Assembly (NCBI GenBank): GCA_016195275.1
Contig: JACPZZ010000001.1
Coordinates: 3,046-67,045, forward strand
DNA from: Candidatus Aenigmatarchaeota archaeon
GTDB lineage: Archaea; Aenigmatarchaeota; Aenigmatarchaeia; JACPZZ01
Length of the DNA stretch: 64,000 nt
Reading direction: 5' to 3'
Shown here: positions 3,895 to 54,649 of the stretch, piece after piece
How the letters are laid out: the number at the start of each line of letters is the position of its first letter
How positions within the stretch are numbered: the stretch's first letter is position 1
Translations under genes and position numbers: made by a program
Notes under the pieces: model-generated
Seen by the model: the letters and a program-made list of their open reading frames with translations, nothing else
Told to the model about the DNA's origin: nothing
Database searches by the model: none

Positions 3895-3917
3895 GAAACA
3901 TACCTCTTGTATGTTTC
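3895..3917. repeat. GAAACAT/ATGTTTC hairpin about 10 nt upstream of tRNA-Ala
   Basis: GAAACATA-cctcttg-TATGTTTC. It belongs to the same arm family as the hairpins at 12833..13012 and 61780..61816. Confidence 0.65.
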
Positions 3918-3927
3918 AGTTTGAGCC

Positions 3928-4022
3928 GGGCCGGTAGATCAACGGTAGATCGCCACATTGGCATAAGGGAAAGAAAACTTCCAGAATTGTGGAGGCTTCG
4001 GGTTCGAATCCCGACCGGTCCA
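3928..4022 (+). tRNA. tRNA-Ala (anticodon GGC) with a canonical 23-nt intron (3964..3986, position 37/38)
   Basis: The acceptor GGGCCGG/CCGGTCC carries the G3:U70 Ala identity pair. The anticodon arm is CCACA TTGGCA^T...AA^T TGTGG. The bulge-helix-bulge reads TTGG|CA^T|AAG...CTT|CCAG|AA^T. The T arm is TCGGG TTCGAAT CCCGA. Confidence 0.85.
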
Positions 4023-4025
4023 AAT

Positions 4026-4151
4026 AAGCCTTCATAGGAAATCATAGATTTCCTATGCACGAAAATCTATGATTTTCGTTGTCTTTCGAAAGAAAGCCTT
4101 AACAGCGAAAATCAACGGATTTTCGCGTGTAGGAAACTAAAAGTTTCCTAC
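4026..4151. repeat. array of four short hairpins (GAAA/TTTC arm family) forming the 3' trailer of tRNA-Ala
   Basis: CATAGGAAATC-ata-GATTTCCTATG (4033..4057). CGAAAATC-tat-GATTTTCG (4060..4078). CGAAAATC-aacg-GATTTTCG (4106..4125). GTAGGAAAC-taaaa-GTTTCCTAC (4129..4151). Confidence 0.8.
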
Positions 4152-4170
4152 AGGGAAATGACGACACCCC

Positions 4171-5409
4171 ATGGGCGGACTGAGGGCGCTGCTTTTCCCG
4201 AATTACGCAAAAAGACTATTTATTAAGAGTTTTGGACAAAGACTAATCAGTGATCGAATGGAAAGTTTTGCTGTTCTGCTGATCGCGGCTGTGCTATTCC
4301 TTGGCTTCCTGTTTTTGGGGACGTATATGCTGGACGTACAATATTCCGGGCCTTCAGGAAAAAGGCCGTCTGCTGTGCGCATCGACTTAACGTCGTTCCC
4401 GCAATTCTTCCTCGGTTTTACAAAGGAGGACAAGGCAAGAACGATAAACTACGAAGATTTCTCCCTGGGTCTGGAATCTAACATGAAAATAAAGGAAGTC
4501 CTGGAGCAGGAAATATCCAGGGGTTTGTTCTCCAATGAAGAATTGTCCTTAGAAGTTGATTTAAACACTGCCACGGTGGCCGAAGCTGCGGGGGCCACCC
4601 TTGAATTTGAGGTCGTAAACACCAATAATTATGGAAATCTTGTTGTTTCATGGAACGGCAAAGAGTATTACAGCGACAAACCCGCTGTCGGCAAGATAAG
4701 CATCAAATTACCAAAAGAATCGCTGAAAAACGAGAACAGGCTTGCGGTAAAGTCCACAGGCCCGGGAGCACGCTTCTGGGCAGAGTCGGTTTATTCATTA
4801 AGGAACTTAAGACTTGATGTTGTCACGGTTTCAAAAAGAACGCTTTTCTTCGAGGTGTTTCCGGAAGAGGCCAGTGCATGGAGTTCTGGCGTGTTGAATT
4901 TCCGCAGGGCTGATTATTCCACCCAAACCGGCGTAATCAAGGCTTACGCAAACGGCAGGCTTGTTTACAACAGCTTTCCAAACGAAGCCGACAAAATTGA
5001 GATCGGGCCTGATGACATACGCCCTGGCACAAATATGATAAAATTCGAGTCGGAGGGCGGCACATTCTCCCTGAAAAATATTTTCCTGAATGTGTTTTTA
5101 TGGAAGAACCGCACTTCGGGCATAACGAAATCGTTTATGCTCAGCGAAGATGATTTGACGCTGTTGAACAGAAGCGGCTATTACGGCGTTGTGCAGATAA
5201 ACCTTGGAGAGGTGCTCAAGGCCGCGCCTATTGAAATAAAATTCCGCGGCAACAAGACGACGAAATCCGTTTTCATCACCGAATTGAAGGACCGCGTGAA
5301 TGCTACTTTTGGGACGGACCAGATCAGTATTGGAAACAACAGCATAACATTCTCAACAGACGGCTCGATGCGCGTTGATTCTGTTGATGTATTCATACAG
5401 GGTCGGTAG
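4171..5409 (+). CDS. membrane-anchored extracellular protein, function unknown
   Basis: 412-aa ORF. An N-terminal hydrophobic segment (FAVLLIAAVLFLGFLFLG) is followed by a beta-rich sequence. The stop abuts the next ORF. Confidence 0.55.
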   Translation: MGGLRALLFPNYAKRLFIKSFGQRLISDRMESFAVLLIAAVLFLGFLFLGTYMLDVQYSGPSGKRPSAVRIDLTSFPQFFLGFTKEDKARTINYEDFSLGLESNMKIKEVLEQEISRGLFSNEELSLEVDLNTATVAEAAGATLEFEVVNTNNYGNLVVSWNGKEYYSDKPAVGKISIKLPKESLKNENRLAVKSTGPGARFWAESVYSLRNLRLDVVTVSKRTLFFEVFPEEASAWSSGVLNFRRADYSTQTGVIKAYANGRLVYNSFPNEADKIEIGPDDIRPGTNMIKFESEGGTFSLKNIFLNVFLWKNRTSGITKSFMLSEDDLTLLNRSGYYGVVQINLGEVLKAAPIEIKFRGNKTTKSVFITELKDRVNATFGTDQISIGNNSITFSTDGSMRVDSVDVFIQGR

Positions 5410-5411
5410 GC

Positions 5412-6716
5412 TTGTCTGAGAAAGAAGACATCGAGAGGCGTGCACGGCTCATAGCGGACAGGAACAACGTGCCTGCGCCCGCGCCTGCAGCGCCGGTTGA
5501 CAGCCCGTGGAAAAAGATATTATACCGTGTCGTCTTGGTTTTAATCTATTTAATAACGATTTCCATTTTCAAATTCTGGGCAGCAGGATGGCTGTGGATA
5601 ACGGTCTTTGTTCTGATAGGGCTTTATTTATTCGCAAGCGGGCCGGCCGACACAACACAGTTTGTAACGTGGGCTGTTATTATCATTGTCTTGTTCGGCG
5701 GTTCTGGTTATTTGTTCACATTAAGCCCGTGGCGCAGCACGATAAACAATTACGTCGCAAGCGTCATGACTTCGTTCAATAAAATTGCTGAGGCTGCCGG
5801 CGATTTCACAGCGCAGGTAGACTGTTTGACGAAACCGACTCTGGAAAGATGCACTAAAATACCTGATGCCGGAACGACCCAGAAAACAAGGAAAGGCCTT
5901 GAGATAACAACGCTTTCCGCCGAGACTTCGGTGGCTGTTGGAAAAACGGCAAGGTTATTCGCTGCGATAAGGAATGAAGGAGAGGCCGATGCGGCTGTGA
6001 GAACCGCAAGGATGTACGGCGGCGAGGGCAAGGGATTCAAGTCTGCGGAAAATTTACAATGCTCCGGCTGCGCGATCGGGATAACGAACGAGGAAATAAT
6101 TCCTAATGCCAGGCGCGATTTAACTGCGGATATATCGATTCCCTGCGAGAAGATATCCACATTCCCTTATAGTTTGAATATTGAATATGAATACAGCGTG
6201 GGGGCGTCGTTGCCGATTGACGTGCTTAATTCAAAAGAATATGACGCAAAAATCGCTGATAAGGAACTGTTTTTAACACAGCCTGCGGCAGACTCGTCCA
6301 GCGGACCGGTGCGTGCGAGCATCGTTGTCGGCCTTGAAGGCTACCAGCCGATAAAAGGCGGGACCAAGAACATCCTTTTCGCTAAATTAAACAACCTGGG
6401 ATCCGGCCAGTTCAGGCTGAAAAGCGCTCAGCTGAAAACAGAATTTAACATATCCAACTGCAAGGTGAACGGCGCTGCTGTCAGCGACTCTAACAACCTT
6501 GTCGACCCGTCAGGCCGGTATTACGGGCCTGAAAAATTCATTTCAGTGAGCTGCGACATGAACGTTATGAATGTTGACGGGCAAAAAAGGTTTATCGCGA
6601 CAATAAACGCTATCTATGCTTACAACATAACAAGTTCTGCCAGCATGGCTGTGGATGAGACCGGTTTTGAATCGTGCAGGCCGACAACGACTGGCGGGGC
6701 GCCGCCCTCTCCGTGA
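5412..6716 (+). CDS. multi-pass N-terminal membrane domain plus an extracellular CARDB-like beta-rich domain protein
   Basis: 434 aa from a TTG start. There are three hydrophobic helices near the N-terminus. Segments such as ARLFAAIRNEGEADAA and ILFAKLNNLGSGQF resemble CARDB-type repeats. Confidence 0.55.
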   Translation: MSEKEDIERRARLIADRNNVPAPAPAAPVDSPWKKILYRVVLVLIYLITISIFKFWAAGWLWITVFVLIGLYLFASGPADTTQFVTWAVIIIVLFGGSGYLFTLSPWRSTINNYVASVMTSFNKIAEAAGDFTAQVDCLTKPTLERCTKIPDAGTTQKTRKGLEITTLSAETSVAVGKTARLFAAIRNEGEADAAVRTARMYGGEGKGFKSAENLQCSGCAIGITNEEIIPNARRDLTADISIPCEKISTFPYSLNIEYEYSVGASLPIDVLNSKEYDAKIADKELFLTQPAADSSSGPVRASIVVGLEGYQPIKGGTKNILFAKLNNLGSGQFRLKSAQLKTEFNISNCKVNGAAVSDSNNLVDPSGRYYGPEKFISVSCDMNVMNVDGQKRFIATINAIYAYNITSSASMAVDETGFESCRPTTTGGAPPSP

Positions 6717-6733
6717 CATCCTCCCACCACTAC

Positions 6734-6779
6734 ACAGGAAATCGTTGATTTCCTGTGCACGAAAACCATTGGGTTTTCG
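6734..6779. repeat. double-hairpin repeat, same family as 4033..4078 and 12608..12654
   Basis: ACAGGAAATC-gtt-GATTTCCTGT GCA CGAAAACC-att-GGGTTTTCG, directly after the stop codon of the 5412..6716 ORF. Confidence 0.8.
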
Positions 6780-7040
6780 TTGAAGCGTGTGGGCTTCCTG
6801 CGAGAGCGAAGTTGTATATCAGCCTACATCTTTCGGAGAGGTCTGACAGGACTGATTCCTGTTCTTCTGTTGGATTTATTTTTATCTGTTGCGTCAGTTG
6901 CATTACATCCCCTTTTGTTCTATGATGTATTTCTCTATTAGTTTATCCGAGATATGTCCGTGAGTTGAGACAAAATAGCTCCTTGTTTACGGTTCGCTCT
7001 CATCCCACCCGTAAACGGCGTGGATTTCCCGCTCACATTG

Positions 7041-11559: not shown

Positions 11560-12450
11560 TTAAATTGCCAGGTTGTATTTTGCTGGGTAAAACCAGTTCC
11601 CATCAGATTTTACATCCTCTGTTTTGATAACGAAACCTTTTGAATTGTATTTATGCAACATGTTTCGTATATGGCCTATTTTTCTTCCTAATAGCGGTAC
11701 CAGATCATTTGCTGTGAAATATCCCTTTGACTCTTGGATACTTCTCATGGAGGAGAAATAAATTTCGTTCACATGTTTTCTAGGAAACATTGACAGCTTT
11801 TTCAGGCCCACCAATTTATTAAGTTTATTACGCTTTTTTATGTGGCGCAAATTCAACATTTCGTTTAAACGTTCCAACCTCTCGAAAGAATTAATCTGTA
11901 TCTGCCAGCTTTTCCTCCAGACCCCGTTGGCGTGGCGGTATCGTCCATGCTGGTAAACCGAGCATTCGATGCCTATTTTTGACAGCAGCGTTCTAATATC
12001 ACAAATTAAATTGGACTGGCTTTCGCCTTCGACCACACATAACTTTATTCTTATGTAGTTGGCGTGCATGTTTACGGTTCCCTCATCGTCGATGATCTGT
12101 GATAAGAACTCCGCTATCTTGCTTTTGTTTAAACTGAATATGAATCCCGGCACGTGTGGGTTGTTTTCGACCTTCCTTCCAGGAATTAGTCCTATGTTTT
12201 CCAGACCTTTACCATATCTTGTTTGGTAAATAGATACGATCTTAACATCAGAATTTTTTGATTTCCTTCTTATGCTATATTTTAAATCTTTTCCAAAAAC
12301 ATTTTTAGCGTCCTTAATAAATCCGTAGATTAACCTACTATTAGAATTTGCATAATATGTTCTTCTCAGCCTATCCAAACAACCGTCGCCTAAAATGGCC
12401 CCGATTAATCTGACACCGCTTGTCGTGGTGAAATCAAATTCCTTTGGCAT
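11560..12450 (-). CDS. free-standing LAGLIDADG homing-endonuclease-like protein with a C-terminal winged-helix-like region
   Basis: Two LAGLIDADG blocks: VRLIGAILGDGCLD and IAEFLSQIIDDEGTVN. 296 aa, lying 3 nt from the EndoQ start and 71 nt from the tRNA-Ile 3' end. Confidence 0.75.
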   Translation of the reverse strand: MPKEFDFTTTSGVRLIGAILGDGCLDRLRRTYYANSNSRLIYGFIKDAKNVFGKDLKYSIRRKSKNSDVKIVSIYQTRYGKGLENIGLIPGRKVENNPHVPGFIFSLNKSKIAEFLSQIIDDEGTVNMHANYIRIKLCVVEGESQSNLICDIRTLLSKIGIECSVYQHGRYRHANGVWRKSWQIQINSFERLERLNEMLNLRHIKKRNKLNKLVGLKKLSMFPRKHVNEIYFSSMRSIQESKGYFTANDLVPLLGRKIGHIRNMLHKYNSKGFVIKTEDVKSDGNWFYPAKYNLAI

Positions 12451-12521: not shown

Positions 12522-12824
12522 TGGGCCCGACCGGAGTTTCCAAGCCTTTCCCTTTCCTGAAGGCCAAGGGTTTTCTTTTACCTTAAGGCTTTTCTTTTTC
12601 AAAGACAATGAAAACCATAGGTTTTCATGCATAGGAAATCATAGATTTCCTATGAAAGGCTTATTCGAACCGGCGACCTACGGCGTCTACGCAGCTTGAT
12701 CCGCAACGCCTTTGCGTTGCGCGCCTTATAAGACATGCGAGTTAGGAAATTGAAACCGGTGCATCCACAATAGCGCCGGTTTCCAGCTACAACACGTCGC
12801 TCTACCAAGCTGAGCTACAGGCCC
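12522..12824 (-). tRNA. tRNA-Ile (anticodon UAU) interrupted by three introns: 12794..12735 (60 nt, 29/30), 12725..12685 (41 nt, 37/38 or 38/39) and 12663..12536 (128 nt, T-loop 59/60)
   Basis: Exons join to a 74-nt cloverleaf: GGGCCTG TA GCTC AGCTTGGTA GAGC G ACGGT CTTATAA GCCGT AGGTC GCCGG TTCGAAT CCGGT CGGGCCC A. Intron 1 has a clean BHB (GCGA|CG^T ... TCGC|AT^G). Intron 3 is closed by AAGCCTTT/AAAGGCTT. Exon plus intron lengths sum exactly to 303 nt. Confidence 0.65.
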
Positions 12825-12832
12825 ACTGTTAA

Positions 12833-13012
12833 CTGAAACATATGCTGTTTGTATGCATATGTTTCTAGTTACTACGACTGAAGCATACCGAGGAAACTGA
12901 AACATACCGATACAGTATACGGTATGTTTCTAGCAGCCTATGCTTCCAGCTTTACGATATGCTTCTAGCTACTGACTGAAACATGCGCTATTGGTATTGC
13001 GCATGTTTCCAG
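12833..13012. repeat. array of CTGAARCAT...ATGYTTCYAG hairpins, partly nested, upstream of tRNA-Ile
   Basis: Hairpins at 12833..12868, 12897..12933 (nested inside the outer stem 12878..12949) and 12976..13012. An unpaired half-copy, CGATATGCTTCTAG, lies at 12955..12968. A conserved tail YAGYTRCTACG follows the copies. Confidence 0.8.
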
Positions 13013-15572: not shown

Positions 15573-15799
15573 TAAACTGTCCTCAATGCAAACATGCTAT
15601 GAAAATGGAATATCGGCCAATGACATTTACTATTAATCCAAATATTATTGTGCAAGATGTGAAAACTAATGTGTGCGGACGCTGTGGCATGGATAGCGTT
15701 TCGCAGGATGAGTACGAATTAGTTAGAAAAAAAGTTCATCGTGTTGCAAAAGTTGGCGGAAATTCATTAGTAGTTACCTATCTACACAAAGCTAACTGA
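15569..15799 (+). CDS. putative antitoxin, YgiT/MqsA-type zinc-finger protein
   Basis: CPQCKHAM...VCGRCGMDSVSQDEY is a CxxC...CxxC YgiT-type finger. The last 22 nt overlap the convergent transposase gene. Confidence 0.5.
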   Translation: MINCPQCKHAMKMEYRPMTFTINPNIIVQDVKTNVCGRCGMDSVSQDEYELVRKKVHRVAKVGGNSLVVTYLHKAN

Positions 15800-16782
15800 T
15801 AGCTGATTTTCCTCAGCAGCCCCACCCACCTATTCCTTCCAAGTTCAAGATCTATCCCGGCCATGCTCGCTGGCGTCATCCTTAACGCCATGTGCGGACG
15901 GACGAAGTTGTAGTAATTGCGGAAACCAGTCGAGAAGACCGCCTCACCGCCCTTAAACCCTCGCATGACCTTATCCCGCTCTCGGAACGTGCCGTGAAAC
16001 CGCTCTACGAGGTTGTTGTCAGGCTTCTTGCGGATAGTTTCCAGCCGTATATGCTGAACGCCTTTTAGCCAGTATTTGTGGGTGTGATATTCGTCCTTTA
16101 ACGCCTGTTCATAGCTGTTCAGACCGTCCGTAACCACGAACTTTGGGACGGTTCCGGCTGTCTCTTTGGCGAACCTTAGAATTTGGCTCGCCTCGCCTAT
16201 TGTTCGTCCATTGGTTACGTTGTTGGCTATCAAAAATCGGGTCTTTTCGTCAACCATGTTCCAGACCCACTTCTCCCTGCCTTCGGACTTGATAGCCTGC
16301 TCGTCCAGATGCCACGCCTCGCTTAGCCTCGGTTTTGGGTCTTTGGTATATTCATTGATCTTCTCTGTGAATTTGGTTATCCATTGCCTGACTGTTTCGT
16401 GGCTTACGACAACACCGTAGAACTGTTTTAGCGTATCTGCGATCTCACGCAACGACAAACCTTTGTAATACAAATCCATAGCCAGCGTTGCTATCTTGCT
16501 GTCAACGCTCAAACGTGCAAAAATGCTGTCTTTGATAAAGGTCTTTTTGCAGTCGAGACATTGAAACCTCTGCTTAACGCCGTTGGCTGTTTTCCTGTTG
16601 CCGTTTTTCTTGACGTTAACGGATTTGCAGTATTCACATTTCGTTTTATCCTCATCCGCAAACGGTATTGTGCTGTCGTCAACCTTAACCCTCATTTTCA
16701 GCAGAAATTCGACTGCGTGAATGTGCTTACATTTTTCTTTCCTATGAACGAAATCGGGATTTTGCTTGATTTTGTTATTCAT
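15778..16782 (-). mobile_element. DDE transposase gene (IS6/IS240-like, with an N-terminal zinc finger); IS boundaries not resolved
   Basis: 334 aa. Zn-finger CEYCKS...CLDCKK. Catalytic-core-like WHLDEQAIK...VVTDGLNSY...NNLVERFHGTFRERDK...YNFVRPHMAL. No convincing terminal inverted repeats found by eye. Confidence 0.75.
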
Positions 16783-16815
16783 TTTTTTACTCCACCATAT
16801 CTCTATATACTATAT

Positions 16816-16859
16816 AGTATATATACCCATTGGTATATATACTTACTGGTATATATACT
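16816..16859. promoter_or_regulatory. three copies of GGTATATATACT (one inverted, two direct) in the divergent transposase/ATPase intergenic region
   Basis: AGTATATATACC-catt-GGTATATATACT (a perfect 12-bp palindrome, 16816..16843), then tact-GGTATATATACT (16848..16859). Confidence 0.5.
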
Positions 16860-16888
16860 TGTAAGTTAATAATTTATGTTGATGCTAT

Positions 16889-24017: not shown

Positions 24018-27000
24018 ATGATGATAAAACTTAACACTCTGATGCGGAAGGCTGCGGCCAAAAAACCAATGGTGCAAAACGCACCGGTTGAAATAAAACA
24101 GGACGCGTCGAAGGCTGTTGTAAGGGCGATTTCCAAGGCTGTCCCGCCTGCAAGCGGCAAAAAATTAATTGTCCCCAGACAAAAAGTGAAACTTGTTGTA
24201 AAAAGACTTCTCGGCATCTCTTCCGGCAAAGAAAAGAAACCGGAAGACCCTTTTGAAGAACTTGTCAAAAATCCGCACGCATTGAAAAGGGCGGCAGAAA
24301 AGTACGGAGTTTCCGAAGCCTCTATAGAAGATATTTACAAACGCCTGCAAAGGCTGGAAGAGGGCAAGGGTGCGCATCTGGGAGCCGAAGACGCCATGAT
24401 GCTGCGAAACGAGCTGGCCTCGCTTAGAGCTGCGCCGGATTTCGGAAGGCTAAGCGACATAGACGAAATAAGGCAGGCTTTTTCAGAAATCGAAGGCAGG
24501 CTTGCCGGGGAGAGCGGCGCGGACAAGCTTCGCGAGGCGGAAATAGAGAGGGAAAGCATAATCAAATCAAAGGACGAGATTGAGAGAAAATATTACAAAA
24601 GGGAAATCGACGAGGCCACTTTCAAAAAAATGATGTCGGATTATGAACAGCAGCTGATAAAAACCGAATCCAAGATCAAAGCGTACAAGGCCGAAGGTAT
24701 TACATCGGAACCGCGGCCAAGCGTTAACATGAACAGGGTTTTTGAAAAATATGCCAAAGGGTTCAAGGCTGTTTATTTCCCTGCCTATCCGCAGATGGCT
24801 GTGCCGATGGCCATGCAGCCCGCCCAACAAACTGTGCAACAGACGCAAACATCCGAACTTATAAGGCCGCTCATAGCCGTGGAGAGCAGGACGATAATAT
24901 CGAAAAACGTCGTGGACGGCATGGAAATACCGGAACCCGAACGAAAAATTTCGCTAATGGAGACCGAAGAGCCGGAAAGCATGATGAACATAAACGTAGT
25001 TTACCCGCTGATACCGAGGGCTCCGGCCAAAGGGGAACTGGTTTACTCTTACACAAACATAAAATGGGATCCAAAAGAGAACGGGCTTGTTTACAGCTTG
25101 TTTGAGCCTGCTCTCACGCCGGAAGAAAAAAGGATATTAGCCAAGAGCAAAGAGTTGCTCGAAGAGAGGTTAAACATCGACCTGCGAAAACTTCGAAAGG
25201 TCGAAGCTGTAAACTATTTGATGAGACAAACGGATGAAGTTTTTTCCGTGATGGGCGTTAAGCTGGACCAGAAAAGGGTGGACGTGCTGAAATATTATAT
25301 CAGGCGTGATTTCGTCGGCCTGGAAAGAATAGACCCGATGATGAATGACCCAAACATAGAGGACATAAGCTGCGACGGAACGAACATACCTATCTACATA
25401 TTCCACAGGAATCCGTTGATAGGTTCCATAAGGACAAATGTAAAATTCCCTGACCAAAGATCCCTGGACACATTTACGGTGAAACTTGCGCAGAGAGCGG
25501 GCAAGGCCATATCTGTTGCAGAACCCCTGCTCGACGGGACATTGCCGGACGGTTCGCGCGTGCAAGCTACGCTAGGCACGGACATAGCAAGGCGCGGGTC
25601 CAATTTTTGCATCAAAGAAGGTTATGTGCAAATGTCTGACGGTTCAATCGAGGATATAAAAACGCTCTTTGAAAACTGGAAAAAATCCAATGGCGTTAGT
25701 ACCGATGAATTTGGAAATGAGCTTGCGGTTCCTATCAACTCCTACGCTGCCGGCGTCCATCATGACAGTTTAGAGCAAGAAAAAGGAAAGATTATCCAAA
25801 TATTAAAACTGCCGCCTCCCGAAAGGCTGGTCAGGGTTAGTTTCGCAGAGTGTGGTAAAACCAACTCGTGTTTAGAGGTAACCGAAAATCATATGTTTCA
25901 TGTCCTTACCGGGGCGGCGGGCATAGAAACACTAGAGTCCAATAAACTTAAGCCTGGCTTATGGGTTCCCGTTCCGGTACAGATTGAGGCCGAGGGCAAC
26001 CTTTCTGAAGAAGATTTTCTTGCCTCTGTTTTAAATTGTCTCAAAAACTCTGCCCCTGGCAGGGTTTATGTAAAAATTGACCAAAAAACCAAGCAGTATA
26101 TAACTTATTCTGATTCTCCCAATAAGCTGAAGGATATAAAAAGAGGCAAAACCACCAGCATGCCTATTGCAGAATTCCTGAAAAACTTGCAAATAAACAG
26201 GCAAAGCATTGATGATGTCAAGGCTGTTTATTGCATACTTAGAAACGGGAAAGAAGGCAGGGGGGCTGTTATAAGGGTGCCATTGAAATTAACGGAAAAA
26301 CTTGCTTATCTCGTGGGTTGGGTGGCGGGGGACGGGTCGCTTACTAAGGATAATATCAGCATACATACAGGCCTGAATGAAGATTATAAGAAATCAGTAA
26401 TGGGAACGATCAATGAATTATTTGGTATAAATGGTAAAACGTACAAAAATGATGAAAACAGAATTTATATCAATAGCAAAATCTTAGCAAAACTGATGCA
26501 TGAAGTTTTTGAGATTCCGTACGGTTACAAGTCTAGAAAAGTCGATGCGCCCAAGATTATCCAAAAATCAAAAAATATAATAGTTTCAAAGTTTTTACAA
26601 GGGCTGTTCGAGGCGGATGGAAGCCTTGGCAGCAACATCAATTTAACTACTTTTTCCAAGAATATGGCCACAAAAGTGATCTTCCTGCTTTCCCGTCTGG
26701 GTGTGTACTCTACCTTTAATACGGATGGAAATTGCCACAGGATTTATGTTCCTTCCGCCTATTACAGAAAGTTCTCGGAGAACGTGTTTTCCAACGATAA
26801 AATCGAAAACCTGGTGAAAAATCAAAAAAAGACGAAAATATCGAATGTCTTGCCGTCGCTCTTTTTGGATAATTTGCTGAAGCAATGTAAAGACAATGGA
26901 ATAAAATCGAATGCCATATCGCATATACTGCACCCTTCTGAGATAAGAAAAAGCGGAAAACTGACTTTTAGCAAAATCAAATCATTGAATACTTTGCTTA

Positions 27001-29582
27001 AGAGCCGCGTAGAAAATGATCTTACAAATGCCGTAGACAGGTTATTGAGGGGGGATCTGGAATTTAAAAGGGTGTCAAAAGTAGAGGTTTTAGACAACAA
27101 AAATGGATCGCCGGTCTATGATATCTCATGCAACCCTGTCACTTTTTACGTGGGCGGAAAAGATACGCCTCTGTTCGTGCACGATACAATAAGGAAATTC
27201 ACGGATGTGCCGCTGACACCCGTGGATATGATGAACTACGGGACAATAAACGCCACCGCGTTGGCTTACCTCTGGATGGCTGTGGAACAGGGCAAATCGG
27301 TTTTGATAGGCGGCTCAACGGCGTCCGGAAAGACAACTTTGCTTAACGTGCTTTCGCTTTTCATAAAGCCGACCAAAAAAATCGTTTCCATAGAAGACAG
27401 CGTGACCGGAGACTCCGAAATTCTGGTCAACAGGGGCGGGTCGTTTGAAAAATTGCCGATTGGAAAATTGGTGGACGAACAGATAGAGAAGTACGGCAAC
27501 GAAAAGGACGTCTTCGGCACGGAATACTGCCAAATGAATCCGGAGGGTGCGCAAGTTTTTGCCATGGATACCGAAGGGAAAATAAAACTTTGCCCGGTAA
27601 GATCCTTTGTCAGGCACCGTGTAAACAAAGACGTTCTTGAGGTCACAACAAGGGCCGGCAGGAGAATCAAAGTTACGGGTGACCATTCACTTTTTTCCCT
27701 GGACTTAAATGGAAAAATAGTTCCGGTAGAAGCGAGAAACCTGCTAAAGGAAAGTTTTATAGCGACGCCAAGAATATTGCCGCATAACACCGGAAGGCTG
27801 GAAAGCATCAACCTGTTTTCCAGAGTAAAAGATTTGGAAGGCGTATTCGTGGAAGGGGACGGATTGAAACATATCCCAATGCCGGAGTTGGTGAGGGCGG
27901 GCGCGACGGGATATCAAAAAAACAAATGCGTTACAGACGGCCTGCTTCCCGTGGAAATTTTCAGCAGGCTTGGCAACGCCGAAGAATTTGCCGGGGCGCC
28001 GGATGGACTTTCAATAAAGGCCGGGCGGGGAGGCAGGGGTGTGAAAGCTGTTCTCAAACTAACGGACGAGTTTTTGGTATTGGTCGGTCTTTGGCTTGCA
28101 GACGGGTGTTATGACAAAAATTCAGTTTTGATATCTGCTGCGAATGACGCCGAATGCAAATACTCCATAGAGCAGGCGGCATCCCAGTTGGGGCTGGGCT
28201 GCAAATACCATAGCGACGGGATAACGTACATTATAAACTCCGCCGTACTCAGACAGGCGATGGAAAAAACTCTCGGAATATGCGGCGGCGCGTATACGAA
28301 AAGGGTTCCCAACTGGGTGTACAATTTAGGGATTGAGCAGATTTCCTGCCTACTAAAAGGTTATTTCAGCGGGGACGGCTCGGTTTCAAAGGATGAGATA
28401 GAGGCAAGTTCTTCATCCATCGGACTGATTAAAGACATACACACCCTGATGCTAAGGCTGGGAATAATGTCGAGGTTTACTACCAAGATCAAAGAGCGCG
28501 ATAAAACCTATAGGATTCGGATAAGCGGCTCTGAAAACCTGAAGTTGTTCTGTGAAAAAATCGGTTTTTTGCAAAAATACAAGCAGGAAAAGCTGGCTAA
28601 CCGGTCCTTGGTCTTCGCAAACCATACCGTTACCGATGTTATTCCGGTTACGAAAGAATTTTTGAGCGCGCTGGCCGGGGAGGGCGCAATTTTTAACAGC
28701 AATTCATATTGGTACGGCAGTAAAATAGGCAGGAATGCCATGGGTAAAGCTGTTTTGCAGGGCGATGGCAAATTCTTGGACAAGGCAGCGCAGCTTGCAA
28801 ATTCGGATCTTCTCTGGGACGAGGTGCTGGAAATACGAAACCTAGGCAAAACAGACCTTTATGTTTATGACCTCAGCGTCCCGGGTTTTGAAAATTTCGT
28901 GTGCGAAAATGTGGTCGCACACAACACGCCGGAACTTAGGCTACCGCACCCTCACTGGGTGCCAGAGGTTGCGAGAACCGCGATATCCGCGACTGACGGA
29001 AAAAAGATGGGGGAGGTTGACATGTTCGACCTTTTGCGCGAAAGCCTGCGGCAAAGACCGGATTACATAATTGTCGGCGAGGTAAGAGGCAAAGAGGCGT
29101 ACGTCCTGTTCCAGCAGATGGCTTCGGGGCATCCCGGAATGTCAACTATACACGCTGACAGCATATCAAAGCTCGTGGACAGATTAACAACCCCCCCAAT
29201 AAGCCTGCCCGGCAACCTTATACAGAACCTTGACATACTGATATTCAGCGACACAACTTCGTTCAAGAACAAGAATGTGAGAAAGATAGACACCATAATG
29301 GAAATGTTGGGGTATGAAAACGGCGCGCCTGTCGGAAACGTCCTGTTCAAATGGGATCCTGTAAAAAATTATCTGCGCGTCGTGGGAAAAAGCGCCATAC
29401 TCAAAAAGATAGCATATTCGAGCAACATGTCGGAAAAGGCTGTGCGGGAGGAGATTTTAAACAGGGTAAAGGTTCTGGAATGGATGCAAGAAAGGGGCAT
29501 AAACGATTTCACTTCCGTGGCCAGGATATTCAGCATGTACAATTCCGACCCGGAAAAAGTCCTGAACGCGATTGGGCAGTAA
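24018..29582 (+). CDS. type II/IV secretion (FlaI/PilB/VirB11-KlbA-type) ATPase carrying two inteins; extein about 819 aa with a long coiled-coil N-terminal extension
   Basis: Extein motifs: ...ATLGTDIARRGSNF|TIRKF...GGSTASGKTTLLN (Walker A) ...KIVSIED|TPELRLPH (Walker B region) ...IIVGEVRGKEAYVLFQQMASGHPGMSTIHA. Confidence 0.9.
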   Translation: MMIKLNTLMRKAAAKKPMVQNAPVEIKQDASKAVVRAISKAVPPASGKKLIVPRQKVKLVVKRLLGISSGKEKKPEDPFEELVKNPHALKRAAEKYGVSEASIEDIYKRLQRLEEGKGAHLGAEDAMMLRNELASLRAAPDFGRLSDIDEIRQAFSEIEGRLAGESGADKLREAEIERESIIKSKDEIERKYYKREIDEATFKKMMSDYEQQLIKTESKIKAYKAEGITSEPRPSVNMNRVFEKYAKGFKAVYFPAYPQMAVPMAMQPAQQTVQQTQTSELIRPLIAVESRTIISKNVVDGMEIPEPERKISLMETEEPESMMNINVVYPLIPRAPAKGELVYSYTNIKWDPKENGLVYSLFEPALTPEEKRILAKSKELLEERLNIDLRKLRKVEAVNYLMRQTDEVFSVMGVKLDQKRVDVLKYYIRRDFVGLERIDPMMNDPNIEDISCDGTNIPIYIFHRNPLIGSIRTNVKFPDQRSLDTFTVKLAQRAGKAISVAEPLLDGTLPDGSRVQATLGTDIARRGSNFCIKEGYVQMSDGSIEDIKTLFENWKKSNGVSTDEFGNELAVPINSYAAGVHHDSLEQEKGKIIQILKLPPPERLVRVSFAECGKTNSCLEVTENHMFHVLTGAAGIETLESNKLKPGLWVPVPVQIEAEGNLSEEDFLASVLNCLKNSAPGRVYVKIDQKTKQYITYSDSPNKLKDIKRGKTTSMPIAEFLKNLQINRQSIDDVKAVYCILRNGKEGRGAVIRVPLKLTEKLAYLVGWVAGDGSLTKDNISIHTGLNEDYKKSVMGTINELFGINGKTYKNDENRIYINSKILAKLMHEVFEIPYGYKSRKVDAPKIIQKSKNIIVSKFLQGLFEADGSLGSNINLTTFSKNMATKVIFLLSRLGVYSTFNTDGNCHRIYVPSAYYRKFSENVFSNDKIENLVKNQKKTKISNVLPSLFLDNLLKQCKDNGIKSNAISHILHPSEIRKSGKLTFSKIKSLNTLLKSRVENDLTNAVDRLLRGDLEFKRVSKVEVLDNKNGSPVYDISCNPVTFYVGGKDTPLFVHDTIRKFTDVPLTPVDMMNYGTINATALAYLWMAVEQGKSVLIGGSTASGKTTLLNVLSLFIKPTKKIVSIEDSVTGDSEILVNRGGSFEKLPIGKLVDEQIEKYGNEKDVFGTEYCQMNPEGAQVFAMDTEGKIKLCPVRSFVRHRVNKDVLEVTTRAGRRIKVTGDHSLFSLDLNGKIVPVEARNLLKESFIATPRILPHNTGRLESINLFSRVKDLEGVFVEGDGLKHIPMPELVRAGATGYQKNKCVTDGLLPVEIFSRLGNAEEFAGAPDGLSIKAGRGGRGVKAVLKLTDEFLVLVGLWLADGCYDKNSVLISAANDAECKYSIEQAASQLGLGCKYHSDGITYIINSAVLRQAMEKTLGICGGAYTKRVPNWVYNLGIEQISCLLKGYFSGDGSVSKDEIEASSSSIGLIKDIHTLMLRLGIMSRFTTKIKERDKTYRIRISGSENLKLFCEKIGFLQKYKQEKLANRSLVFANHTVTDVIPVTKEFLSALAGEGAIFNSNSYWYGSKIGRNAMGKAVLQGDGKFLDKAAQLANSDLLWDEVLEIRNLGKTDLYVYDLSVPGFENFVCENVVAHNTPELRLPHPHWVPEVARTAISATDGKKMGEVDMFDLLRESLRQRPDYIIVGEVRGKEAYVLFQQMASGHPGMSTIHADSISKLVDRLTTPPISLPGNLIQNLDILIFSDTTSFKNKNVRKIDTIMEMLGYENGAPVGNVLFKWDPVKNYLRVVGKSAILKKIAYSSNMSEKAVREEILNRVKVLEWMQERGINDFTSVARIFSMYNSDPEKVLNAIGQ
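25608..27185 (+). mobile_element. intein 1 of the pilus ATPase (526 aa, LAGLIDADG homing endonuclease domain)
   Basis: Starts CIKEGYV after GSNF and ends PLFVHD before TIRKF. LAGLIDADG blocks: LAYLVGWVAGDGSL and SKFLQGLFEADGSL. The terminal residue is Asp (codon GAT at 27183..27185), not Asn. Confidence 0.85.
27399..28925 (+). mobile_element. intein 2 of the pilus ATPase (509 aa, LAGLIDADG homing endonuclease domain)
   Basis: Starts SVTGDSEILV after KIVSIED and ends NVVAHN before TPELRL. LAGLIDADG blocks: LVLVGLWLADGCY and LLKGYFSGDGSV. Confidence 0.85.
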
Positions 29583-35300: not shown

Positions 35301-35401
35301 CCTGTACATTAACCTTCGCTTTTATGCTTGGGTTTGGATAGAGTCACAGACTCCAGTACGGAAGCGTCAGGTTATCTGTTCGCTGACAGATTTTAGGGCT
35401 A

Positions 35402-35450
35402 TTAGAAAACCTTTGGTTTTCTAATTGAGAAAATCTAACGATTTTCTCAA
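35402..35450. repeat. double-hairpin repeat, second copy at 63246..63292
   Basis: TTAGAAAACC-ttt-GGTTTTCTAA TTGAGAAAATC-taac-GATTTTCTCAA. Confidence 0.8.
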
Positions 35451-36702: not shown

Positions 36703-39700
36703 TTGAGCGATAAAACAATAGAAAAGGCCGAGAAGGTCAAAAGCGCACAGGAGATGTCGCGGGACCAGAGGGAAATTTCCGTTTCGGAGTTTTTTGAGAA
36801 AAACAGACATCTTCTCGGCTATGACAACAAGGTGAAGGCGTTATTGACCGTTGTTAGAGAGGCTGTCGATAACAGCCTTGATGCTTGTGAAACGGCGCGC
36901 ATAGTCCCTGACATAAAAGTTTCTGTTAAGCCTGTTAATGACGTGAAGGACAGATACGTTATATTAGTCGAGGATAACGGGCCCGGGATTGTAAAACAAA
37001 ATATTGGCCGTGTGTTCGGAAAACTGTTGTTCGGGTCAAAATTTCATAAGCTTATCCAATCATTGACCGGGGACGAGCCTGTTTTTGTGATACGAAACGG
37101 CAAAACCGAAATAATACCGATAGGAAACCTAGTAAATTCTTACCTTCAACCCGAAGAAACTGAAAAGAACGTGTTAGATCATGATCTTCTTGTACCGGCT
37201 TTCGACCGTGAAACATACAAATACAGATTCGCGAGAGTGAGCCATGTAATACGGCACAAAAGGGAAAATGAGATTGTTAAGCTTACTTTAAACACAGGAA
37301 GGACTCTTAAAGTAACAGGTTGCCACAGCATATTCTCAATAAATCCTGCGACTGGCGGGCTTGAAGAAACCGAGGCAAGAAACCTAAAAATCGGGGACTA
37401 TATAGCGATTCCCAAAAAGCTGCCTTCTTTAGAGATTTCCGAAATTAACCTTCTGGACTACTTAAGTTACGAGCATATCAAAGACAACTGGGCTTACGTT
37501 TACGGCATAAACGGCGGTATTTTTGAAAAACTTATTGAAGGTGCTGAGGCTGTGCATAAAAAGACGGACAAGAGCAGAAAATATTACAGGCTGTTTACCG
37601 GAAACAAAGAACCCGTAGACATATTAGACGACAGCATGAAACAATACATGAACAAAAACTTCCTGCCAATTCAGCTTGTGCTAAAGCTGGGGCTGAAAGA
37701 CGCGGTAAAAGGCGGTTTCATCAAAACTTATTGTCGTGGCAAGGAGACGAGAATACCTGTTTCTCTGGAAATGACGGACAAACTGGCCAGGTTCTTGGGG
37801 TTGTTCGTGGCAGAAGGTCACAGCGATAAAAGGCAGATAGCACTGACCTTCGGCAGGCATGAAGACCATCTTATTGACGAAGTTCTTAATTTCGCAAGAA
37901 TATTCGGTTTGAATACCACCCTAGAACACAGAAAAAATTCCATTAGGATCAAGCTGTTTGGTAATATGTTCGTAAAATTTGTATCCGATGTTTGTGGTGT
38001 GGGCGCCCACAACAAAAAAGTGCCGGAGTTTGTTTTCAGAGCCGGCCACATCATGCGCCAGCACTTCTTGGACGCTATTTACCAAGGCGACGGCCACAAA
38101 GTGAAAGGAAGGAATAACATAATGCTCAATACAGTTAGCAAACGGCTTGCGAATGAAATAATGTACCTGTGGTCCATGCAAGGCATAGCCGCCTGCATAA
38201 CCAGCCGAACAAATAAGAACGGTTTAGGCAGATTCCCTTCTACCTGTTACGTAGTCAATGTTTACGGGAACGATATAAACAAATCCTTTGTTTATTCTTG
38301 CCCGAATACGGAAAGGACAGCAAGACAGATAGAATACGAGTCTGTAAAACAAATCTCCATAAACTCCAACCAATTGGTTAAGAGTAAGCTTATCGAGTCT
38401 GATATATTGATGGTTAAAATCAGGAACATTGAAACAATAAACGAAGGGCACGATCTCGTCTATGACCTTTCAGTTACAAAATCCGAAAATTTCGTTGGCG
38501 GTTTCGGGGGAATTGCATGCCACAACAGCCGCGGACAACAGGGCATAGGCATTTCGGGCGCAGTGCTTTATTCACAATTAACGAGCGGCAAGCCCTCTAA
38601 AATTGTTACGTCCACAGGCGACGGCAAGACGCATTACATGGACCTGATGATCGATACGTTCAAAAATGAGCCGGAAATTCTCAAGGAAGAGATAAAGGAA
38701 GGAAAAAGTTGGCACGGCGTCAAAGTCGAAATGGAGGTGGAGGGAAAGTACGTTGAACACCAGCAGTCAATTTCGGAGTATCTGAAACAAACGGCGATGT
38801 CAAATCCCTACGCAGAAATAATTTACGACTCGCCCAACGGCAAAATTAAATTTGAACGCTCGGTAAAAACGCTTCCCGAGGAGCCGAAATCGATTAAACC
38901 GCATCCGCACGGCGTAGAAATAGGAATTTTGAGGCGAATGCTCAAAACGACAGAAGCGCGCACGCTAACAGGGTTTTTCACAAGCGATTTTTCCAGGGTC
39001 GGCCAAAGCTCTGCAAAAGAAATAATAAGGCTTGCAAAGCTTGGCGACGATGTGGGCCCGAAAAACATAGACGGCCCGCAGGTAGAAAAGCTGTTTCAGG
39101 CAATACAACAGGTGCAATTGATAAAACCTCAGTTGGATTGTTTATCGCCTCTCGGGGAAAAATTAATAGAGGAGGGTTTGAAGAAACAACTGAAGCCCGA
39201 GTATGTTGTTGCAATAACGAGGCCGCCGGATGTTTACCGAGGAAACCCGTTCCAGATTGAATGTTGCACGGGGGATACAAAAATAATTTTGGAAAACGGG
39301 TCGGTTGTTGACATAAAAAATTACATCGAAAACGGTATGTTCAAAAAATACGACAAAGTGCTGTCAATGACAAAGGATCTAAAGATAAAACCCCAGAAGG
39401 TTCACGCTGTGCAAAAATTCAAAAATGTGCACAAGATCCTGAAGATAGAAACCAGGACAGGAAGGGTGCTTAAATTAACCCAGAACAACGAGCTTCCAAC
39501 GATAATCAACGGAGAAATAATATGGAAAGCAGCCGGCGAACTCGGGGCCGGGGATTTTGTAGCAACCCCGAGGAGACTGGCCGTTGACGGGAGAAAACCT
39601 CACATTTTGGAGTTAATGGACGAAGATTGTGTAAAGGTACATGATATAGAGGCTGTAAGATATTTGATGTCCAAATGCGCATCGAAATTTTACGGTATCA

Positions 39701-41363: not shown

Positions 41364-42443
41364 ATGGCAGGCGAAGCGGTTAAAAAACTCGATAACCTGG
41401 GGAAGAAATTAGTCAAGGACATAGAAGAGGAGAAAAACCCCTCAATGACAATACCTTTACGGGCGCTGTCCAATGTTGTTTTCGACCGCCAAGACAGAAC
41501 CCTGAGAATAGGCGACAAGACTTTTGTAAGGTCCTTTTTCAATGTTGCGCACGCGAGGAAATTCTTACAGACCGTGGAAGTAGGGGCGATAAGCAAAGAC
41601 CTGTTAAACAACAACAAGCACGCCTCGCTGAGAGACGTGTTCTACATGGCTAAACGGACAATCCCGAACACAAAGATAAACGTTGTCGATGAACAACAGG
41701 AATCTGATAATGCGGTTGAAGATTTGGAAATGATAACCGGCTCGTGGCGCGAGCAGCTGCACATCAATGCGAACAAGTTGGGCGCTGTCGCAGGAAACGT
41801 GGTCGTCGAAGATGCCGGGGACACGATTGACTGGTCTAAATTAGGGTCCGGCGGCTGGTCGATACCTTCGAACATAGAAGAGCTGAAATTCAAGAAAGTT
41901 GATGCGAAATATGTCATATACATGGAAAAAGCGGCTGTGTGGGAACGATTAAACGAGGACAAGGTTTGGAAAAAATTAAACTGCATAATAATATCGTCGC
42001 AGGGGCAGGCGACCCGGGGGATAAGAAGAATGCTGCAAATACTCTCAACGCAATACAAATTGCCGATATATGTGCTTACAGACTTTGATCCCTGGGGAAT
42101 CTACATATATTCCGTGTTAAAATTCGGTTCCATTAACCTTGCCCATATTTCAGACCGGCTGTCGATTCCTAATGCAAAATTCCTTGGAATAACTGCTGAC
42201 GACATAGAAAAATACGACCTGAAAAAGCATTTCATCAATTTCAAGGACGTTGATTTTTCCAGGTTAGATCAGATAGGCTCGTATGACTGGTTTAAGAACA
42301 ACAAGGACTGGCAAAGGCAATTCAAGATGATGAAAGACTGGAAAGCGAAAGCTGAAATACAGGCATTGTCGGCGCGCGGCATTTCTTTCATTTCGGACAA
42401 ATACCTGCCTGACAAGATAAAAAACGAGGACTGGCTGGACTAA
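41364..42443 (+). CDS. top6A: DNA topoisomerase VI subunit A (Spo11 family)
   Basis: It sits directly after top6B. LRDVFYMAK holds the catalytic Tyr region. The Toprim segment is YVLTDFDPWGIYIYSVLKFGS. Confidence 0.92.
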   Translation: MAGEAVKKLDNLGKKLVKDIEEEKNPSMTIPLRALSNVVFDRQDRTLRIGDKTFVRSFFNVAHARKFLQTVEVGAISKDLLNNNKHASLRDVFYMAKRTIPNTKINVVDEQQESDNAVEDLEMITGSWREQLHINANKLGAVAGNVVVEDAGDTIDWSKLGSGGWSIPSNIEELKFKKVDAKYVIYMEKAAVWERLNEDKVWKKLNCIIISSQGQATRGIRRMLQILSTQYKLPIYVLTDFDPWGIYIYSVLKFGSINLAHISDRLSIPNAKFLGITADDIEKYDLKKHFINFKDVDFSRLDQIGSYDWFKNNKDWQRQFKMMKDWKAKAEIQALSARGISFISDKYLPDKIKNEDWLD

Positions 42444-44509: not shown

Positions 44510-44533
44510 TACTTTTAATTCATCCTAAAGAAT

Positions 44534-45253: not shown

Positions 45254-45606
45254 GGTATTATTTTACCCATAAAAGTTAAATACCCATGTTTTGTAAGAAC
45301 CCTATAGGGTAGTATCACCAAATTACATAATTTGAGGGGTGGTGATACCAAGTGATAGTTAGTAACTCTGGGTTATTAAGGTTTGCTTCAAAGTGCTTTA
45401 GGCTGGTGCCAAAGGTGATGCCAGAATATTCTTCCAAAAAGGAATATAACCAAAGATAGAAGAGCGAGGCTGCCACTTCATCTGTAAAGAGGAAATATGG
45501 TGATAATGTAAGTTCAGGGGGATGAGGCTCACGGCTTTTGTTTACATGTGGACAGAGATTCAAGGGGTTTTATTGTAGGATTTATACAGAGCAAATACCT
45601 ATCGAT

Positions 45607-46374: not shown

Positions 46375-46408
46375 ATATGGATATTAATTTCGAAGATTAA
46401 AATGATTA

Positions 46409-47266: not shown

Positions 47267-47320
47267 AGCATCACACCACTGATTTTAGATTGATCCTGAG
47301 CTTTAAATGGTTTTTGTATT

Positions 47321-47644: not shown

Positions 47645-47648
47645 TCAA

Positions 47649-48762: not shown

Positions 48763-48766
48763 GCCG

Positions 48767-49297: not shown

Positions 49298-49300
49298 TCT

Positions 49301-52747: not shown

Positions 52748-52748
52748 A

Positions 52749-54526: not shown

Positions 54527-54649
54527 TACATTACCTTTTTTATGATCGTTATTAGGATAGATAAGGTTTTTGTTTTGATTATTGTATCGAATTTCGATTT
54601 TAAAAATGAAAAATAAGCTTAAATATAGCCAAATTTAATTAATTAAATA

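Follow-up and report, generated by a model that had tools for sequence, protein, structure and literature searches.

Nested hairpin repeats in the tRNA introns of an Aenigmarchaeota archaeon

Introduction

In Thermoproteales, similar introns in different tRNA genes and at different positions have been ascribed to intron 'transposition', an account credited to Fujishima et al. 2010 (Mol Biol Evol 27:2233) and known to us through a review. It implies that introns were gained late, in organisms whose splicing endonuclease tolerates non-canonical sites (PMC4090602). The mechanism by which archaeal tRNA introns are transposed or gained, above all at non-canonical positions, is still called unknown (PMC4090602, PMC5829648). 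Here we analyse a stretch of 64,000 nt (the window) from contig JACPZZ010000001.1 of a groundwater Candidatus Aenigmarchaeota, a DPANN archaeon, in which a tRNA-Ile(UAU) gene is interrupted by three introns. Proteins encoded beside the gene assign the window to an NCBI MAG of this group (locus tags HY051_, 69-kb contig). The intron in its T-loop contains a repeat that we call the backbone, and nested in it a double hairpin that we call alpha. Our reading, to which we give a probability of roughly 0.65, is that this is a layered bulge-helix-bulge (BHB) intron, that alpha entered it when it already existed, and that another intron of the same gene derives from a hairpin of a further family, delta. 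Hairpin-guided insertion or gene conversion is our low-confidence guess for the spread of these modules.

The backbone shares with the Thermoproteales introns its presence in different tRNA genes at different positions. In contrast to that system, as known to us through its review summary, the host belongs to another phylum (Aenigmarchaeota, DPANN) and the intron sequences are also found in trailers, after coding sequences (CDSs) and before genes. They are also modular, with double hairpins of 49-50 nt nested in the backbone, and orthologous sites occur both empty and filled. The repeats themselves resemble the REP/BIME and PATE-type palindromes of bacteria and haloarchaea, which are related to IS200/IS605 and are short, abundant and often paired intergenic hairpins lacking terminal inverted repeats (TIRs) and target-site duplications (TSDs). 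Both are short perfect hairpins in many intergenic copies, lying after stop codons or between convergent genes and nesting in one another. Unlike for REP/PATE, no Y1 transposase (TnpA/RAYT) was found among the window open reading frames (ORFs) scanned and there is no conserved flanking tetranucleotide. Furthermore, our copies also lie within tRNA genes, from which they are predicted to be spliced out, and their orientation follows transcription.

Two other systems deserve comparison. Introners are transposon-derived spliceosomal introns of eukaryotic algae and fungi (PMC11282704). There as here, insertions of a repeat family into genes persist through their removal as introns, and near-identical copies occupy unrelated genes, whereas our elements are far smaller, would depend on a protein endonuclease and a BHB instead of the spliceosome, and do not carry both splice-site determinants. 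A model proposed for Caldiarchaeum has tRNA genes disrupted by integrating mobile elements (Sugahara et al. 2012, PMC3293823); it involves tRNA fragments and an element of 1.8 kb that encodes a recombinase. Heterogeneity of introns at one tRNA locus between populations or lineages, attributed to mobile DNA, is common to both cases, whereas the repeats described here are non-coding hairpins of 50-130 nt without duplication of tRNA fragments. The closest precedent is that of the Thermoproteales, and with respect to it the DPANN host, the intron sequences outside tRNA genes, the nested modules and the empty and filled orthologous sites appear to be new.

Results

A tRNA-Ile(UAU) gene with three introns

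The exon structure of the tRNA-Ile gene was worked out by hand and the spliced sequence was then given to ARAGORN. Neither default ARAGORN, nor its intron mode, nor Rfam searches of the window had called the gene. Its features are the following:

12522-12824, minus strand: tRNA-Ile(UAU) gene with three introns, the spliced product of 74 nt being a perfect cloverleaf (ARAGORN)
12735-12794, minus strand: intron 1, 60 nt, position 29/30, a delta hairpin CTGGAAAC-stem-loop-stem-GTTTCA
12685-12725, minus strand: intron 2, 41 nt, beside the anticodon loop (~38/39), a covarying hairpin found in all six genomes examined
12536-12663, minus strand: intron 3, 128 nt, in the T-loop between 59 and 60, the feature flagged by the initial annotation
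12606-12654, minus strand: alpha module inside intron 3, 49 nt, covariance-model score 73 bits

Read on the minus strand from 12824, the acceptor and D-arm, the anticodon loop CUUAUAA and the T-arm with the 3' strand of the acceptor follow one another, split by three inserts. Excision of these leaves 74 nt that ARAGORN folds into a flawless tRNA-Ile(UAU), and the assignment of 12536-12663 as a T-loop intron in the initial annotation is thereby upheld. The anticodon UAU (loop 12726-12734) serves the AUA codon, and the gene is kept in all six genomes. The usual archaeal decoder of AUA is an agmatidine-modified CAU tRNA-Ile2, unlike the UAU tRNA-Ile of the window.

We also considered that a repeat-induced chimera had placed the element into the tRNA gene. 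Short-read contigs do break at the element, as does contig L011 of another assembly, which starts inside alpha. However, an independent Logan assembly from another sequencing run (L012) spans exon 1, all three introns and the downstream ORF, with the introns identical, and orthologs in other metagenome-assembled genomes (MAGs) have introns at the same position. We regard the risk of such an artefact as negligible.

Intron 3 contains dispersed repeats in two layers

Roughly the first 100 nt of intron 3 are repeat DNA. The first layer is a backbone of ~45 nt, (T)AAGCCTTT-CTTT-loop-AAAGAAAAG-CCTTAAGGTAAAAGAAAAC, whose left end lies directly at the 5' splice site. The second is alpha, composed here of two perfect hairpins, CATAGGAAATC-TAT-GATTTCCTATG and ATGAAAACC-TAT-GGTTTTCAT. 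Once alpha is removed, what is left can be aligned with copies that lack it. The third layer of the intron is a locus-specific 3' tail of ~25 nt, the source of both the T-loop-pairing strand and the other half of the closing helix.

Hairpin 1 of alpha, AGGAAATCNNNGATTTCCT, occurs exactly three times in the window (at 4036, 6736 and 12633), with 0.02 occurrences expected and none of 100 shuffles reaching three. These copies and the related hairpins of the window lie in the following places:

3928-4022, plus strand: tRNA-Ala(GGC), with a canonical 23-nt 37/38 intron
4024-4152, plus strand: tRNA-Ala trailer, a backbone carrying alpha (4033-4081) and beta (4103-4152)
6733-6782, plus strand: alpha copy, 16 nt past the stop of CDS 5412-6716, covariance-model score 73 bits
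12835-12865, 12899-12930 and 12978-13009, no strand given: three delta hairpins just upstream of tRNA-Ile
35401-35450, plus strand: gamma double hairpin between convergent genes, 42 bits
63232-63312, no strand given: hairpin GAAGCATATCG...CGATATGCTTC with gamma (63244-63293) in its loop, directly downstream of the EndA gene

BLAST aligns intron 3 with the tRNA-Ala trailer at 87.5% identity over 56 nt (E=3e-10), and a global alignment from AATAAGCC to AAGCCT gives 74 identities in 95 columns, nearly all differences falling in the last ~12. The three copies reported in the initial annotation are hence real and far beyond chance, including the one after the stop of an unrelated CDS. Its remark that the element begins after AAT applies to about half of the copies (AATAAGCC in 4 of 8) and fails for the rest.

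Several families of small perfect hairpins populate the non-coding DNA of this genome. Alpha (49 nt) reads CAYAGGAAATC-loop-GATTTCCTRTG followed by CAYGAAAAYC-loop-GRTTTTCRTG and then TTG. Beta (50 nt) is its sister module, with the same architecture reverse-complemented, and gamma (49 nt), at 35401 and 63244, is a more distant member of the family. The backbone, whose copies were aligned after stripping alpha and beta, reads (T/C)AAGCCTTT-CTTT-loop-AAAGAAAAG-CCTTAAGG(T/G)AAAGAAAC. Delta (CTRGAAAC-stem-loop-stem-GTTTCAG) lies directly upstream of tRNA genes; further examples in the window precede tRNA-Ala (3895-3917) and tRNA-Phe (61782-61813).

The exact alpha pattern was found at 10 loci in three related groundwater Aenigmarchaeota MAGs in a scan of species-representative genomes, and in 8 further contigs in a metagenome scan. 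A covariance model of the double hairpin yielded 25 matches of at least 59 bits, all in Aenigmarchaeota and most of them sequences used to build it. Neither alpha nor beta matched viral contigs in IMG/VR, and a viral origin was dropped. In Rfam searches, at gathering thresholds and by E-value, neither the intron nor the element matched a known family; the matches that did appear were microRNA-like, due to chance, and fell on long hairpins. A C/D-box sRNA within intron 3, comparable to that of the haloarchaeal tRNA-Trp intron, was considered and rejected, as no C/D boxes are visible by eye in alpha or backbone.

Regarding delta, many tRNA genes in the window and in four other loci (L001, L006, L008 and L009) are preceded, at a distance of 8-15 nt, by perfect hairpins of the form CTGAAAC, 6-7 bp, loop and GTTTCTAG, which occur in both orientations. 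Upstream of tRNA-Ile there are three in tandem in the window and one in the ortholog L013. Candidate roles for these hairpins are as promoter, in leader processing, or merely as a preferred landing site.

Alpha and beta as precise insertions

Our comparisons cover the 64-kb window and pieces of 3-13 kb from fragmented MAGs; L-numbers stand for such pieces and for contigs of other assemblies and metagenomes. At the orthologous tRNA-Val/tRNA-Ala locus of L025, L026 and L027, the backbone follows tRNA-Ala directly and carries neither alpha nor beta. Affine-gap pairwise alignment of the window trailer with that of L025 opens one clean gap of 49 nt, exactly alpha, at AAGCCTT^TCTTT; MAFFT opened no gaps of 49-50 nt in these trailers. 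Beta sits between CCTTAA and GGGAAA of the window trailer. The alpha at 6733 lies within a 325-nt spacer between convergent genes that abut or overlap in L013 and L014.

Modules are also found within one another. In L020, beta lies within the loop of alpha hairpin 2. At 63232-63312, gamma occupies the loop of an outer hairpin whose 'empty' form is seen at L025 4326-4357. In L029, another hairpin lies inside the loop of tRNA-Ile intron 2. Many insertions fall within hairpin loops, but stems are the sites of intron 1 and of the alpha in the backbone. A possible 5-nt duplication (GTTTG) accompanies a different nested hairpin in the comparison of L003 with L008. Taken together, these comparisons indicate that alpha and beta are precise insertions and that the sequence shared by intron 3, trailer and spacer is a genuine dispersed, insertion-prone repeat.

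Intron history at the tRNA-Ile locus

Five tRNA-Ile orthologs (L013, L014, L016, L029 and L030) were recovered through the conserved neighbours IMPase and EndoQ. Their exons are identical to those of the window, save for one base in L014, and remain constant while the introns differ, in genomes where the neighbouring IMPase is only 59-71% identical. The introns are distributed as follows:

Beside the anticodon loop: intron 2, in all six genomes
Variable region: an intron in L014, L016, L029 and L030
Position 59/60: T-loop intron of the backbone type in the window (128 nt) and L013 (125 nt)
Position 59/60: T-loop intron of an unrelated type (AGCTGAC...GTCAGCCGATCA) in L029 (38 nt) and L030 (65 nt)
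Position 59/60: no T-loop intron in L014 and L016
Position 29/30: intron 1, in the window and in none of the five orthologs

Intron 2 is old, non-repeat sequence. The T-loop intron is restricted to some lineages, an outcome for which the initial annotation had looked to orthologous genes. In L013, the nearest available ortholog, it has the backbone of the window intron with no alpha at the backbone site, and a different double hairpin farther downstream. Therefore, alpha most likely entered an existing intron and did not create it. On the simplest reading, the ancestor shared by the window genome and L013 would already have carried a backbone-type intron at 59/60, with alpha inserted later, at the same AAGCCTT^TCTTT site that is used in the tRNA-Ala trailer.

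The initial annotation had seen in this intron what gain by insertion of a mobile, BHB-competent repeat would look like. In its strongest form, the whole T-loop intron would be one recent insertion of a self-contained repeat of this kind into an intact tRNA-Ile. This would explain why the left end of the repeat (T/AAGCC) lies exactly at the 5' splice site in tRNA-Ile, in a tRNA-Met (L002) and in a class II tRNA (L001), and fits with a copy after a CDS in another MAG (L007) and with the lack of the intron in L014 and L016. Yet it is contradicted by the homologous, alpha-less backbone intron at 59/60 in L013, by the different intron type at that position in L029 and L030, and by the splice determinants treated below, and we consider it unlikely. 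What survives of the proposal is the dispersed, insertion-prone nature of the repeat, with alpha as a probable later arrival.

Intron 1 probably has a different origin. It matches, in inverted orientation, the delta hairpin just upstream of tRNA-Ile in L013 (86% over 36 nt), and would have been gained most recently of all, from a hairpin of the kind that lies just upstream of the gene. Not flagged by the initial annotation, it is the clearest case here of a recent intron derived from an intergenic hairpin, and illustrates de novo gain better than intron 3.

Splice junctions and the splicing endonuclease

The full BHB motif of an archaeal endonuclease-spliced intron has two 3-nt bulges set 4 bp apart between flanking helices. 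The junction of intron 3 is a relaxed form of it: the outer helix is the T-stem (5 bp), the bulges are AA|U and AC|U (3 nt each), and the central helix has 3/4 pairs, joining U54-U55-C56 to a GAA close to the intron's 3' end and setting G57 opposite a G. An inner helix of 9 bp pairs AAGCCUUUC with GAAAGGCUU. In the minimum free energy (MFE) fold (RNAfold), the T-stem and the closing helix both form, around a 6x6 internal loop. The two arms of the closing helix are:

12654-12662, minus strand: 5' arm AAGCCTTTC, also the left end of the backbone (MFE fold; covaries with L013)
12542-12550, minus strand: 3' arm GAAAGGCTT, followed by the T-loop-pairing GGAA and the 3' bulge, outside the repeat

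Comparison of AAGCCTTTC/GAAAGGCTT with the closing helix of L013 (AAATCCCTT/AAGGGATTT) reveals compensatory changes and an equal junction geometry. On these grounds the 128-nt T-loop intron appears to be a genuine endonuclease-type (BHB) intron with a layered build. The repeat alone is not splice-competent, because the 3' closing strand GAAAGGCTT and the GGAA strand are missing from all non-tRNA copies (L007 and L020) and from the trailers. This is the third argument against a self-contained insertion, and the BHB-competent repeat of the initial proposal is not supported. For intron 1, a strict hBHBh' motif can be read from the sequence, with H = GCGA/UCGC, bulges CG|U and AU|G, and h' = GUUG/UAAC.

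The window also encodes the enzyme that would be expected to excise the introns:

62569-63213, plus strand: EndA, tRNA-splicing endonuclease, alpha-type subunit (Pfam tRNA_int_endo_N and tRNA_int_endo)

This protein aligns end to end with the alpha4 enzyme of M. jannaschii, from which it differs by a 6-residue, Lys-containing insertion just ahead of the conserved EHxK motif. The N. equitans alpha subunit has a longer insertion at this site. Inserts near the catalytic histidine have been linked to broad endonuclease specificity (PMC5829648). In the proposed reaction, the T-stem, the UUC/GAA pairs, the two 3-nt bulges and the 9-bp closing helix of the pre-tRNA would present the splice sites to EndA, and RtcB-type ligation would then join the exons. 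The alpha hairpins would lie at the distal end of intron 3 and play no part in splicing.

Related repeats in other tRNA genes and outside them

The initial annotation held that the same repeat behaves as an intron in one tRNA and as flanking DNA elsewhere, and our survey extends this to introns of several tRNAs at different positions. Alpha is found in the 37/38 intron of a tRNA-Met (L002), where backbone, alpha and beta are combined as in the tRNA-Ala trailer of the window, in the 37/38 intron of a tRNA-Arg(CCU) (L004), and in the variable-arm region of the class II tRNA of L001. In L027 the 37/38 introns of tRNA-Val(CAC) and tRNA-Ala(GGC) both consist of the backbone and have GGTCTTT(C/G)AATGTCCCAAA in common; L026 likewise has a backbone intron at 37/38 of tRNA-Val(CAC). 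Similar introns are hence located at 59/60 of tRNA-Ile (window and L013) and at 37/38 of tRNA-Ala, tRNA-Val and tRNA-Met. Delta hairpins, in turn, interrupt tRNA-Leu genes in L006 and L009. Backbone with alpha also lies outside tRNA genes: the copy in L020 precedes a gene, and the one in L007, which follows a CDS, matches the window intron at 95% identity over 99 nt.

Splice sites are less clear in some of these genes. A BHB scan found no strict motif for the class II tRNA of L001 or the tRNA-Arg of L004; drawn by hand, the latter has a central helix of 4/4 pairs without an adjacent inner helix. In L001, L006 and L009, where the splice sites are approximate, ARAGORN allows many different deletions; it also gives several of these genes a wrong label.

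Covariation and orientation of the hairpins

We also looked at how the stems of the double hairpin vary. In an alignment of 23 copies, pairing holds for 99.5% of the stem cells, and both sides have changed in 9 of the 20 pairs; none of 500 shuffles matched this, and pairing with slid partners gave 34-52%. G.U pairs make up only 4 of 437 cells, a scarcity more in keeping with very young copies, or with a palindrome under constraint in both strands, than with a purely RNA-level fold. All 20 placeable alpha copies have hairpin 1 ahead of hairpin 2 when read along the host or neighbouring transcript, a count that relies on crude gene calls.

Such regularity could mean that the hairpins are primarily selected functional motifs, either signals for RNA 3' ends, stability or processing, or protein sites, their presence in introns being incidental or itself functional, for instance as a stable excised RNA. 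In agreement with this, besides the uniform sense orientation, the cores GGAAA/TTTCC and GAAAA/TTTTC are invariant while loops are free and stem ends covary; the typical sites are right after stops, between convergent genes and 20-30 nt before starts; and the exact form is kept across genomes whose proteins are only 60-80% identical. On the other hand, a selected motif does not account for precise presence and absence at orthologous sites, for copies nested in one another's loops, or for assemblies breaking in copies (L011), and so few G.U pairs would not normally be expected from a constraint on RNA alone, while they agree with a palindrome that is read in both strands of the DNA. A function would moreover not preclude mobility, as in REP elements. 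We give little credence to selected function as the primary explanation.

Sense orientation in transcribed regions, along with several insertions in loops (T-loop, anticodon loop, variable loop and hairpin loops), would also be expected if hairpin RNAs were ligated into cut RNA loops by the chemistry of the endonuclease and RtcB and then copied back to DNA. But no reverse transcriptase was seen among the ORFs scanned, alpha in the backbone and intron 1 sit in stems, intron 1 is inverted relative to the closest related hairpin, and the mechanism has no known precedent. This makes spread at the RNA level highly improbable.

As a separate observation, three loci of an alpha subfamily with CACAGG stems (L006, L009 and L017) have the same ~110-nt composite ahead of different genes: a GGnnCCAAAA...TTTTGGnnCC hairpin, alpha and TTGTTTTACAAAAGGGATTTGG, ending 20-30 nt before the start codon. 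Its A/T-rich tail could be a portable promoter.

Neighbouring genes and other features of the window

Directly downstream of tRNA-Ile lies a free-standing LAGLIDADG-like ORF of 296 aa (11560-12450, minus strand) with two LAGLIDADG-like motifs, a weak Pfam LAGLIDADG_3 match and no PDB sequence match. It is present in the closest relative, L028 (2-484; EndoQ 84% identical), and absent from this place in L013, L014, L029 and L030. Other LAGLIDADG_3 ORFs lie beside tRNA-Ile in L016 (7098-7928, opposite orientation) and beside the intron-bearing tRNA-Val(CAC) in L027 (2687-3538). The ORF looks like a mobile homing-endonuclease-type gene associated with tRNA loci; a role for it in the spread of the repeats would be pure speculation.

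A DDE transposase-like ORF (15778-16782, minus strand; IS240/IS66/rve matches) has AT-rich flanks unrelated to the hairpin families and adjoins AT-rich overlapping palindromes (TATATAC...) at 16804-16871. Similar transposase fragments are found near the tRNA-Ile locus in L029 and L030. In L019 and L021 (metagenomes ERZ1292632 and ERZ1292629), alpha is flanked on either side by a copy of another hairpin repeat, GAAAACCCACGA...TCGTGGGATGAAAGCG. These copies precede an ORF of 409 aa, the N-terminus of which (MLGLKYRIYPSEIQQQ...) looks TnpB/IS605-OrfB-like by eye.

Downstream of the tRNA-Ala trailer, a block of ~35 nt, GATGACGACACCCCATGGGCGGACTGAGGGCGC (window 4153-4190), is followed by a T-run. 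It has hardly changed among four genomes with flanking proteins of 60-80% identity, its counterparts lying at L025 ~4888-4925, L026 ~4900-4935 and L027 ~4775-4815. Its GAUGA ... CUGA, flanked by GCCC/GGGC, suggests a small k-turn or C/D-like RNA that may be transcribed together with the tRNAs; the window copy lacks the 5' GCCCG, and the block has no Rfam match.

Elsewhere, a gas-vesicle cluster (44500-54600, minus strand) comprises a GvpA-type Gas_vesicle protein, two GvpF/L, an AAA_5 GvpN-like ATPase, a ParA/MinD-like ATPase and PadR/MEDS regulators. The GC content of this stretch is 0.38-0.40 against 0.44-0.48, with reversed GC skew, and the cluster, unexpected in a DPANN archaeon, may have been acquired horizontally. 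Two giant ORFs, 24018-29582 and 36703-41361 (both plus strand), are intein-bearing genes. One codes for a secretion ATPase of type II/IV (T2SSE) and contains an intein and LAGLIDADG domains. The other codes for subunit B of topoisomerase VI, in which Intein_splicing and LAGLIDADG_3 each match two stretches, and is followed by the gene for subunit A (41364-42443).

Discussion

We propose that the T-loop intron of tRNA-Ile(UAU) is a layered BHB intron, that alpha joined it after it had become established, and that intron 1 arose from a delta hairpin. Introns would be tolerated landing sites because they are cut out, and hairpin modules that land in a tRNA gene and can be closed into a BHB would survive as new introns. 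As for the spread itself, our best guess, held with low confidence, is a REP/PATE-like process at the DNA level, either insertion guided by hairpins or gene conversion among the repeats.

Several points weigh against this proposal. The comparison of copies to define ends and targets, which the initial annotation had called for, gave the clean 49-nt alpha gap and no consistent target motif or duplication: empty and filled sites of alpha, beta and gamma show at most 1-2 nt of ambiguity, and left flanks are CCTT(T) in 8 and CCT in 3 of ~20 copies, the rest being unrelated. Nor are there TIRs, each module being two independent hairpins and not one TIR pair. Alpha occupies the same place in most backbone copies, which could reflect spread of the composite or gene conversion and not repeated site-specific insertion. 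No candidate mobilising enzyme was identified in the available sequence. A function in RNA or DNA that is under selection would likewise agree with the invariance of the stem cores and the strictly kept sense orientation. With 3/4 pairs and a G.G mismatch, the central helix of intron 3 is relaxed, and a tolerant endonuclease of relaxed specificity is therefore needed. The existence of two unrelated intron types at 59/60, in relatives that are similarly distant from the window (EndoQ 68-69% identical), makes any order of gains, losses and replacements provisional. Finally, sampling is limited, and we infer all processing steps, splicing and expression alike, from sequence.

Miniature inverted-repeat transposable elements (MITEs) were also considered, given the dispersed copies with presence and absence at orthologous sites. 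This model was rejected, since the repeats have neither TIR nor TSD and the ends of the DDE transposase of the window are unrelated to them.

A broader proposal, which we make tentatively and regard as somewhat doubtful, is that this clade of Aenigmarchaeota holds an archaeal counterpart of introners, in which hairpin modules of 45-50 nt enter DNA able to form hairpins, tRNA genes included (in their T-, anticodon- and variable-arm regions), and become or enlarge endonuclease-spliced introns. If this were true, most tRNA introns of the lineage would derive from intergenic repeats, and the lineage would offer a natural system of empty and filled sites for working out how archaeal tRNA introns are gained. 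In tRNA-Ile(UAU), four intron positions are filled in different combinations across six genomes while the exons remain nearly constant. Here introns can be traced to repeats outside tRNA genes, and relatives exist with and without the modules; therefore, intron 'transposition' becomes testable by population genomics and biochemistry. The tRNA sets of DPANN MAGs are also probably under-called, because standard finders (default ARAGORN, Rfam) miss genes such as this tRNA-Ile.

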